43,625 nucleotides of DNA from Herminiimonas sp. (GTDB taxonomy: Bacteria > Pseudomonadota > Gammaproteobacteria > Burkholderiales > Burkholderiaceae_D): contig NZ_JAUSME010000322.1 in NCBI RefSeq assembly GCF_030645555.1, forward strand, positions 1-43,625, read 5' to 3'. The position numbers were made by a program, and so were the translations under genes. Numbering within the stretch: the stretch's first letter is position 1; each line of letters starts with the position of its first letter. Below are positions 5,504 to 13,776 of the stretch, piece after piece. The notes beneath the pieces were generated by a model, which saw only the letters and a program-made list of their open reading frames with translations, was not told where the DNA came from and did no database searches.

Positions 5504-7000
5504 ATGACTGAACTCGAATTCAAAACGCTGGCCACGCAAGGCTACAACCGCATCCCCCTGATTGCCGAAGCTTTCGCCGATCTGGAAACGCCGCTATCGC
5601 TCTACCTGAAACTGGCGCAAACCCAGAACAATGGAAAGAATTCCTTCCTGCTGGAGTCTGTTGTCGGCGGCGAACGTTTCGGTCGCTATTCCTTCATCGG
5701 CTTGCCTGCGACGACGCTGATGCGCAGCTTCGGCACCCGCATAGAAGTCGTCAAGAACGATGCAGTTGTGGAGACGCATGAAGGCAATCCGCTCGATTTC
5801 ATCGCCGAATTCCAGGCCCGCTATAAAGTGGCGATCCTGCCCGGCATGCCGCGCTTTTGCGGCGGTCTGGCTGGTTACTTTGGCTATGACGCAGTGCGCC
5901 ACGTTGAAAAGCGCCTGGCCCACAGCTGCCCGAAAGACGATCTCGGCTTGCCGGAAATCCTGTTGCTGCTGACCGAAGAACTGGCCGTCATCGACAACCT
6001 GTCCGGCAAACTGTATCTGATCGTGTATGTCGATCCGGCGCAAGCGGATGCCTATGCACAGGGCCGCGAACGCCTGAAAGACTTGCGCGCAAAATTGCAT
6101 CGCGCGGTCGAAGCACCGCTGACCCCGGCCTCGACACGTACAGAAACGATACGCGAATTCGACAAGCAGTCTTACCTGGCAGCAGTCGCGCAAGCCAAAG
6201 AATATGTGATGGCTGGCGACCTGATGCAGGTGCAAATCGGCCAGCGCATCAAGAAGCCGTATGTCGATGCGCCACTGACGCTATACCGCGCCCTGCGCTC
6301 GCTCAATCCATCGCCGTACATGTACTTCTACAACTTCGGCGACATGCAAATCGTCGGCGCCTCGCCAGAAATCCTGGTGCGCAATGAAGCGATAGGCGAC
6401 GACAAGAAAAAAGTGACGATACGCCCACTGGCCGGCACCCGCCCGCGCGGCGACACGCCGGAAAAAGATGCGGCTCTGGCCAAGGAATTGCTGGCCGATC
6501 CGAAGGAAATCGCCGAACACGTGATGCTGATCGATCTGGCGCGCAACGACATCGGCCGCATCGCTGAAATCGGCAGCGTCAAGGTCACCGACAAACTGGT
6601 GATCGAAAAATATTCGCACGTGCAGCACATCGTCTCCAATGTCGAAGGCACGCTGAAAGCCGGGCTGTCGAATCTGGATGTATTGAAAGCGACTTTCCCG
6701 GCCGGCACGCTGTCGGGTGCTCCGAAAGTGCGGGCGATGGAAATCATCGATGAACTGGAACCAACCAAGCGCGGCATTTACGGCGGCGCCTGCGGTTATC
6801 TGTCATTCGGCGGCGAAATGGATCTGGCGATCGCGATCCGCACCGGCGTCATCAAGGACGGCATGCTGTATGTGCAGGCAGCCGCCGGCATCGTTGCCGA
6901 TTCGGTGCCCGAGATGGAATGGCAGGAAACTGAAAACAAGGCCCGCGCTGTGCGTAGAGCCGCTGAACAGGTGCAAGATGGCTTGGATGGAGAAATCTGA
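5504..7000 (+). CDS. trpE: Anthranilate synthase component I
   Basis: [68 protein letters not shown]. Confidence 0.98.
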
Positions 7001-7155
7001 GATGGCAAATTTTCTACAAGCGGGGATAGTTTCGGCGCAGGCTAACTTGTGCGGAGCGCAAGTTAAGCGTAGCGGCCGTAGCCAAAACTTTCAGCGCGCT
7101 GTGTTAAGAGCAGCCGAACAAGTGCAAGATGGTCTGGACGGGGAGATTTGATATG
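6944..7155 (+). repeat. Diverged direct repeat of the trpE 3' end (61 bp x2: 6944-7004 and 7095-7155)
   Basis: Copy 1 encodes [22 protein letters not shown] and copy 2 encodes [22 protein letters not shown]. By hand count 48/61 nt are identical, and the differences are almost all synonymous. Confidence 0.92.
7002..7151 (+). CDS. 49-aa ORF ending in a duplicated TrpE C-terminus (possibly translated as a coupling linker)
   Basis: [49 protein letters not shown]. The ATG is 1 nt after the trpE stop, behind GGAGA. Its own stop is 1 nt before the trpG ATG. Confidence 0.45.
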
Positions 7156-7716
7156 TTGCTGATGATAGATAACTACGACTCCTTCACCTATAACCTGGTG
7201 CAGTATTTTGGCGAACTGGGCGAAGAAGTCGTTACCGTGCGCAATGATGAAATCACGCTGGAGCAAATAGCGGCCCTGAAGGCGGATCGCATCTGCATTT
7301 CGCCCGGCCCGTGCACGCCGCATGAAGCCGGCGTCTCTATCCCTGTGCTGAAACATTTTGCCGGCAAATTGCCGATACTCGGTGTGTGCCTGGGCCATCA
7401 AGCGATAGGTGCGGCTTTCGGCGGCAAGGTCGTGCGCGCGCAGCAAGTCATGCATGGCAAGACTTCGCTGATCACGCATACCGGCGTCGGCGTCTTCAAG
7501 GGCTTGCCCAGCCCGTACACGGTCACCCGCTATCACTCGCTGGCGATAGAACGCGCATCGCTGCCGGATTGCCTGGAAATCACTGCGTGGACCGATGATG
7601 GCGAAATCATGGGCGTGCGGCACAAGGAATTCGATATCCAGGGAGTGCAGTTTCATCCCGAGTCTATCCTGTCCGAACACGGCCACGCCTTGCTGAAAAA
7701 TTTTCTCGTACGCTGA
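7153..7716 (+). CDS. trpG: Anthranilate synthase component II (glutamine amidotransferase)
   Basis: Starts [15 protein letters not shown]; [24 protein letters not shown]. Start moved from 7129 to the ATG at 7153 (GGGGAG RBS). Confidence 0.97.
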
Positions 7717-11545: not shown

Positions 11546-11581
11546 AATGAAAACGGCCACGCAAGCGTGGCCGTTTTCATT
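11546..11581. terminator. Intrinsic terminator-like hairpin after dsbC
   Basis: Perfect inverted repeat AATGAAAACGGCCACGC-AA-GCGTGGCCGTTTTCATT. Confidence 0.75.
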
Positions 11582-13700: not shown

Positions 13701-13776
13701 GGCCTGGTAGCTCAGTCGGTAGAGCAGAGGATTGAAAATCCTTGTGTCGGTGGTTCGATTCCGCCCCGGGCCACCA
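13701..13776 (+). tRNA. tRNA-Phe (GAA)
   Basis: 76-nt cloverleaf GGCCTGG...CCGGGCCACCA; D-arm AGCTCAGTCGGTAGAGC; anticodon loop TTGAAAA; T-arm GGTTCGATTCC; encoded CCA. Confidence 0.98.

Follow-up and report, generated by a model that had tools for sequence, protein, structure and literature searches.

A family of target-matched hairpin cassettes that replace gene ends, seen at the trpE-trpG junction of a Herminiimonas genome

Layout of the trpE cassette

What separates trpE from trpG in this Herminiimonas genome (G000, 90.5% complete), and how might it have arrived there? The window, i.e., the whole stretch of 43,625 nucleotides that was analyzed, contains trpE (anthranilate synthase component I; ORF with PF00425 and PF04715) at 5504..7000 and trpG (anthranilate synthase component II; PF00117) at 7153..7716, both on the plus strand, as are the parts of the insert between them. 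A sequence-only reading had flagged the stretch 7020..7094 as a palindromic element and a possible recombination or recognition site. The insert is larger: a cassette of 151 bp (6933-7083) comprises the last 22 trpE codons with the stop, a short spacer, a 14-nt arm and a 50-nt core, and is followed by a host-type trpE end.

Since the duplication of the trpE end (a direct repeat of 61 nt, 79% identity) has a register of 151 nt, the start of the cassette was placed at 6933, and the limits 6933-7083 were adopted because the arm complements 6933-6946 in two trpE carriers of other genera and the unit measures 151 nt in all five carriers (5 genomes, 3 genera). In this register the left junction and target motif, G|AAAAC, occupy 6932..6946, with the G at 6932 outside the cassette, and the first bases of the cassette (6933-6946) form segment X, to which the arm is complementary. 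Comparison with carriers and cassette-free kin suggests that the working 3' end of trpE (6933..7000) is cassette-borne. It is followed by the spacer (7001..7019), whose ATG (7002-7004) begins one base past the trpE stop, at the usual trpG start position, and then by the target-specific arm X' (7020..7033), the reverse complement of the cassette start. The conserved core (7034..7083; 82.5 bits with covariance model R1), supported by covariation, is predicted to form a three-way junction made up of a stem (7034-36/7081-83), a GNA/GNA internal loop, a second stem (7040-42/7075-77), a variable hairpin (7043-7065) and a mini-hairpin (7067-7073). In the displaced host-type trpE end (7084..7151) the first 11 nt are altered, 7095-7151 is synonymous with cassette-free relatives, and the segment likely carries the ribosome-binding site of trpG. 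The only ORF in the cassette is a mini-ORF of 49 codons (7002..7151), without a Pfam match, which runs through arm, core and displaced end; the neighbours are housekeeping genes.

Parts of the earlier description were confirmed: the outer arms (7025-7036, 7081-7092) form 10 of 12 possible pairs, and both the inner stem (7043-7065) and GCGTAGC (7067-7073) lie where they had been reported. The palindrome had also been taken to replace the trpE segment between AGIV and RAV, but 7020-7031 fits 6884-6895 no better than it fits 6935-6946 in reverse complement (9/12 in either case), and in the trpE cassettes L054 and L055 the arm is complementary to the ENKA codons at 12-13 of 13 positions. AGIV homology was thus rejected as the left edge: the likeness is coincidental, and what the arm repeats, in reverse complement, is the start of the cassette itself. 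What that reading chiefly overlooked is this left arm, which is specific to its target and complements the bases with which the duplicated gene end opens. The arm in the window is a drifted copy, and pairs at 10 of 13 positions both with 6934-6946 and with 7085-7097.

Contigs from four sequencing runs, belonging to four studies, span the core with 0-10 differences, and an assembly artefact was therefore rejected. At 6954, in the working trpE end, an Arg codon replaces the Leu of the relatives; the contigs of all four runs have a T at this position, so that the Arg of the window represents either a private variant or an assembly error. Elsewhere in the window, a perfect inverted repeat of 17 bp (11546-11581) between two minus-strand genes is probably a terminator.

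A single base separates the mini-ORF from the trpE stop on one side and from trpG on the other. This ORF is open in all five trpE cassettes and in 13 of 13 first-unit ftsW cassettes, and the six unit lengths observed at ftsW (113-143) all preserve the frame; in gap units, which have no coupled neighbour, the frame is not kept. The spacer ATG is at +1 in 5/5 trpE cassettes, and cassette spacers keep the start codon of the next gene. From these sequence comparisons we infer that the frame is kept by selection for translational coupling, the mini-ORF serving as a relay from trpE to trpG.

Targets, arm and fold

Among 207 sites, 47 first-unit gene-end cassettes were recognized, which reduce to 22 target sites. 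The target families named by the scan include trpE, gap, ftsW, dksA, glmS, folE2, proB, metK, pyk, tkt and dnaJ. At 21 of the 22 gene-end sites the start of the cassette conforms to G|A(A/C)AA; the G before X, which the filter did not require, is likewise present in 21 of 22 (background 430/1487), and 19 of the 22 starts coincide with the second position of a codon (background 60%, p 0.008). The right end of the unit is fixed at unrelated sites, with the boundary GCC|A located 18 nt past the GTTA of a TAAC...GTTA pair that flanks the inner stem. Larger repeats and tRNA genes also show simple insertions at this target motif, in which no more than 3-4 bases are shared.

The arm follows the gene in which it resides. 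At positions that vary synonymously between lineages, and at sites that were chosen by arm score, arms match the variant of their own gene at 92 of 99 positions in ftsW and 13 of 16 in gap, versus 17 of 458 and 4 of 34 for the other variants. A preference for the upstream copy of 18 versus 0 is inflated, X having been selected on pairing, and two tests without arm-score selection are fairer. When X was placed by register alone, in a set where many clusters did not keep the register, no upstream preference was seen: arm pairing was better upstream in 9 cases, better downstream in 7 and equal in 6. With the distal duplication and the target motif used together to place X (40 of 231 sites, 18 clusters), arm positions 5-14 form on average 6.9 pairs upstream and 5.2 downstream, against 2.5 by chance, and the upstream copy was better in 9 clusters, worse in 1 and tied in 8.

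The evidence for a hairpin beyond chance comes from homologs and not from folding of the single sequence. Folded as single-stranded DNA or as RNA, the 75-nt flagged stretch is only modestly better than its shuffles (z -2.4 and -1.5 for plus and minus DNA; -1.8 and -2.6 for RNA), wider flanks gave z values of -0.3 to -1.4, and the side hairpin, although its sequence is present at 7067-7073, is missing from the minimum-energy fold. Compensatory substitutions are abundant: 104 compensated cells were counted in the seed alignment, in which the outer stems were fixed by the search pattern, versus 37.8 in shuffles (0 of 500 as high). The outer stems are also compensated in the copies found by model R1, in an alignment that leans towards the model. 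In 117 cores the variable inner stem has 31 G-T versus 2 A-C pairs when read on the sense strand, so that the sense strand is the one taken to fold. The same 117 cores contain 45 C(GNA)G loops and few RNA-type tetraloops. In each GNA the central base is free to vary, and the foot of the core reads TTTC in 65, TTGC in 40 and TTAC in 6 of 126. C(GNA)G triloops are stable in DNA rather than RNA. These sequence features point to a core that folds on the sense strand with DNA-type GNA loops. Collapsed cores, retaining only the outer stem and one GNA loop, occur beside full cores at L173, L231 and L285, which suggests deletion between the two GNA motifs.

Distribution and the origin of the two trpE ends

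Model R1, a covariance model built from 49 core copies, revealed a widespread family that recurs at duplicated 3' ends of conserved genes, as the sequence-only reading had anticipated. Of 151 Burkholderiales genomes, 61 contain the core; 100 genomes that represent other orders of this class gave no match. Copy numbers per genome range from 1 in the genome of the window to 17-50 in four others and 56 in G458, the maximum. A scan of GTDB contigs matched at least 119 stretches, nearly all titled Betaproteobacteria, with Methylophilus methylotrophus among the species matched by the pattern. Phage and plasmid collections yielded no core match, and viral contigs ten, nine of which are one insertion; this is antisense and duplicates the first codons of a phage tail-tube gene (L191-L195, L197-L200, L093). 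Tandem arrays of 2-5 units are common, some of near-identical units. We conclude that this is a real family of hairpin cassettes, matched to their targets and replacing gene ends, which appears to be undescribed; no published account was found in a literature search that fell short of most subscription journals and of bioRxiv supplements.

The earlier suggestion of an insertion system at the 3' ends of conserved genes stands in part: the structure is conserved at duplicated ends, its loops are of DNA type and one strand is favoured, but the family is not restricted to 3' ends. A minimal form, consisting of a short hairpin and the core, occurs in frame within mutY and recG, in tRNA anticodon loops, in larger repeats and antisense at the start of the phage tail-tube gene. 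Interruptions of anticodon loops (Ser and Leu tRNAs, assigned by eye), followed 30-50 nt further on by a complete copy of the tRNA, were observed at L241, L244, L250, L254, L265, L273 and L205. In G060 (L266) an array of short cores occupies the anticodon loop of a tRNA-Phe copy (by eye), upstream of an intact copy; the tRNA-Phe(GAA) of the window (13701-13776) is uninterrupted. In G060 and G458 the core is also nested once or twice in larger gene-less repeats with terminal inverted ends (L035-L040, L262, L263, L278-L287), which carry it to many sites.

At the trpE-trpG junction the occurrence is patchy. The insert was found in 3 of 30 such loci of relatives (G000, G003 and G011), while the two genes are joined directly in 25 and separated by an unrelated gene in 2; a pattern search of 401 family genomes matched nine, including the two trpE carriers in other genera. 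Other inserts at this junction were observed, namely a gene of ~800 bp in two congeners (L032, L033; G009, G018) and, in G053 (L045), an insert preceded by a repeat of the first trpG codons. In a tree of trpE plus trpG from 31 genomes the five carriers require four changes, one-change trees appeared in 0 of 200 bootstraps, and monophyly of the three congeneric carriers was rejected (29 rows, AU p 7e-30). Taken alone, the tree would be compatible with repeated loss from an old insertion.

The two copies of the trpE end differ in their affinities. The three congeners were compared with the five nearest cassette-free kin, and in 14 of the 15 comparisons the kin resembled the downstream copy more closely than the upstream one; for the two carriers of other genera, whose available kin are distant, the same holds in 5 of 10. 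The upstream ends of the congeners are identical to each other at 51-54 of 57 positions, and to their nearest cassette-free kin at 40-47. Over 18 codons the downstream copy encodes a normal TrpE end in 5/5 carriers, and on sequence such intact copies fit recent displacement better than long decay. In G078 a lineage-specific ending is common to both copies, and a GC3 test on 21 cassettes did not separate foreign from host copies (6 versus 7). In G000 and G003 the arm and the downstream bases are altered together, away from the trpE codons. A diversity-generating retroelement was rejected, as the differences between copies are not adenine-specific.

Known systems and possible routes of movement

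Judged by its sequence, the cassette is not a member of the BRE, REP, attC or MITE classes or of a known RNA family. To our knowledge, small bacterial repeats usually lack cargo, and their spread is poorly understood. Rickettsia palindromic elements are in-frame insertions of palindromes into coding sequences, which resemble the core in mutY and recG, but we know of no gene-end cargo or target-matched arms among them. Unlike a MITE, the cassette ends in A(A/C)AA and GCC and its inverted arm is internal; it is the core that is nested inside terminal-inverted repeats.

The nearest described repeat in the same taxa is BRE. The accessible text of Hot et al. 2011 (PMC3110155) presents it as a small GC-rich palindromic repeat of Betaproteobacteria, scattered or in tandem, at gene ends and in ORFs, with no known mobiliser; it is also listed in PMC3184786. 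BRE is a ~90-bp repeat in Bordetella. The cassette core shares the betaproteobacterial hosts, the scattered and tandem occurrence and the location at gene ends or in ORFs, and by eye the layout (hairpin-A-GC...GC-G) is similar. The sequence family is another one, and membership was rejected: on 15 BRE-motif loci, with filters off, R1 reached at best 14.3 bits (E 0.13), BRE being represented here by an 18-nt motif. That motif is absent from G000 and from 306 other loci, and the word stem 'duplicat' does not occur in the main text of PMC3110155. In the BRE-motif copies (L307-L321) a fixed loop is flanked by two arms that pair and vary between loci, and BRE may be a sister family with locally matched arms.

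A folded, strand-specific single strand with a pairing motif at the hairpin foot is described for IS200/IS605 and for REP/TnpA-REP elements (PMC6006769, PMC8266576, PMC3733652, as far as their accessible text goes), and the cassette core is similarly a folded single strand with a pairing motif by its foot. However, it lacks a GTAG (or CGTC) foot, is branched, carries cargo between X and the arm, and has a natural arm of 10-18 nt. In contrast to a REPtron, it has no core-flanked or co-occurring Y1 gene.

The sequence-only reading had looked to a tyrosine recombinase or HUH nuclease as a partner, and this was not borne out: neither recurs beside the copies, and the highest-copy genomes are without Y1-HUH or full integron-integrase matches. 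The genes beside ~70 loci (a codon heuristic picked one or two ORFs on each side, and many of these matched nothing at strict cut-offs) were housekeeping genes with no shared mobile enzyme and one XerD-like neighbour, and the 27 scanned ORFs of the window contained no mobile-element families. Among PF01797, PF00589, TIGR02249, PF00078 and PF02371, searched in five genomes each, nothing was common to all and nothing adjoined the copies. G060 (100% complete, 50 copies) gave no match to PF01797 (Y1-HUH), PF00078 (RT) or PF02371 (IS110), and only a fragment of an integron integrase; this enzyme is full-length in G458 and G171 and without a match in G000 (90.5% complete) and G039, while a reverse transcriptase match was obtained in one of the five genomes. 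No R1 copies lie within 1.5 kb of the four Y1 genes found in the five genomes. A single Y1-HUH gene (PF01797) adjoins the glutamate synthase large-subunit gene (named by eye) in G000 (G000:C44:3547-3870; L261) and in G171 (L260), with no core nearby. The Y1 protein of G000, linked to gltB, was considered as the cassette enzyme and dropped, since it has no match in G060 or G039 with the G000 protein as query.

Direct traces of movement were sought in addition. In three complete chromosomes, with the terminus assumed opposite dnaA and many copies lying inside other repeats, 52 of 102 loci were oriented towards the lagging-strand template; a bias in that direction is a feature of IS200/IS605 elements, in which TnpA-Y1 cleaves and transfers strands at tetranucleotide sites. 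No circle junction (backward joint) was present in the contigs of four runs, a form of data that drops rare forms. Run X2 contained two skipping joints of 151 and 161 nt (sides of 30-36 nt, 88% likeness); they were not counted as excision, as they may come from cassette-free relatives.

On a modest balance of probability, we favour the view that the protein-less cassette moves as a small folded circle of single-stranded DNA, inserted at G|A(A/C)AA by an enzyme acting in trans. The fixed ends, the target motif, the arm that complements the cassette start, the covarying core, the patchy occurrence and the displaced host-type end speak for this view. Against it weigh the lack of a circle junction and of an enzyme match, the even orientation of the loci, the outcomes of the register-only and GC3 tests, the 5 of 10 comparisons in the other genera, the ending common to both copies in G078, and the equal pairing of the arm with both copies in the window. 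In such a circle the 3' end of the core would join X, and arm and X would form one long stem beside the junction, at which a single strand exchange would insert the cassette. The target gene would survive, because the cassette brings its last codons, and in coupled operons only the frame-keeping copies would persist. A copy would become immobilized once the bases immediately after the core had decayed. For a new target to be acquired, a minimal cassette would insert directly after a stop codon and later depart at a G|A(A/C)AA further upstream, taking the gene end along, and the arm would be rewritten, or selected, to fit that gene. After insertion, homologous recombination and slippage would probably aid the spread, amplification and deletion of copies. 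We advance more tentatively, at somewhat below an even chance, the broader reading of DNA-guided insertion: a folded ssDNA core of ~50 nt, retargeted to any gene by an arm of 10-18 nt, would carry a replacement gene piece and be processed by a conserved enzyme, perhaps one of the host; relatives would in this way exchange gene tails, and the system would illustrate the birth of cassettes from chromosomal DNA.

An unlikely but substantial alternative dispenses with a dedicated enzyme. The core would stall replication, host template switching would copy the arm from neighbouring DNA and duplicate the gene end, and slippage with homologous recombination between relatives would spread, amplify and remove copies. 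The lack of a mobile enzyme common to the high-copy genomes is in keeping with such a process, as are the arrays of near-identical units, the joint change of arm and downstream bases in G000 and G003, and the spacers that keep the start codon of the next gene. It sits poorly with the sharp target motif and the fixed right end at unrelated sites, with the clean insertions in other repeats and tRNAs that share 3-4 bases, and with an arm whose better fit is usually to the copy 35-100 nt upstream, not to the bases directly downstream.

It is improbable that the element acts at the level of RNA, either as an mRNA structure for stability or coupling or through an RNA intermediate copied back by reverse transcriptase. 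Nearly all gene-end copies are sense-oriented with a readable frame, the G-T bias suits RNA as well as DNA, and BRE, the similar-looking repeat, is described in transcribed regions in the accessible part of PMC3110155; yet the loops are mostly C(GNA)G triloops, a reverse transcriptase was matched in only one of five genomes, and one copy lies antisense at a phage gene start. There is also no Rfam 15 match at gathering score in 6800-7300 (best E 3.4). RNA sequencing runs contained 4-7% of the sequence words of the stretch.

It is very improbable that the element is an unusual attC-like site used by integron integrases or by XerCD-type tyrosine recombinases. The crossover in attC takes place within the GTT of the R box, whereas the cassette junction lies outside such a box, 18 nt beyond GTTA. 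The two cassettes share a logic, in which a folded site comes after the cargo and has an arm that pairs with the start of the same cassette, and both form tandem arrays; the inner stem is bounded by TAAC...GTTA, and full integron integrases exist in G458 and G171. According to the part of PMC8946536 at hand, however, attC is an unbranched bottom-strand hairpin with extrahelical bases, while the fold proposed here is branched and formed by the top, sense strand. Moreover, the cargo is a host gene end, the target is the host gene itself, IntI appears not to be required (G000, 90.5% complete, and G039 have no match), and XerD-like neighbours number one among ~70 loci. Finally, the idea that the cassette is only what remains of a large integrative island, for which the trpE end had served as attachment site, is largely refuted and retains next to no probability: in prophage e14, as reported in the accessible text of PMC6379469, the element supplies the working end of icd and leaves the old end as a downstream duplicate, and the cassette likewise supplies the 3' end of its target and displaces the old one, but its length is an identical 151 nt in five unrelated carriers, it has neither an integrase nor a remnant of one, and a single core serves about twenty genes through a changeable arm.

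Whichever process is responsible, the cassettes account for spurious short ORFs and duplicated gene ends in annotations. The family carries the tail of the gene that it enters, including the essential ftsW, gap, glmS and metK, with an arm matched base by base. Engineered IS608 is described, in the accessible text of PMC5934647, as reaching targets of 12-17 nt by extended pairing; if an enzyme reads the arm of the cassette, this would be a natural version of such targeting and a candidate programmable insertion tool, and would be categorically new should guided insertion be shown. The proposed movement of the folded circle, if true, would offer a testable model for the origin of cassettes and for the exchange of C-termini between species. 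Even if host processes alone were at work, the family would represent an undescribed force that reshapes gene ends in ~40% of the sampled Burkholderiales genomes.
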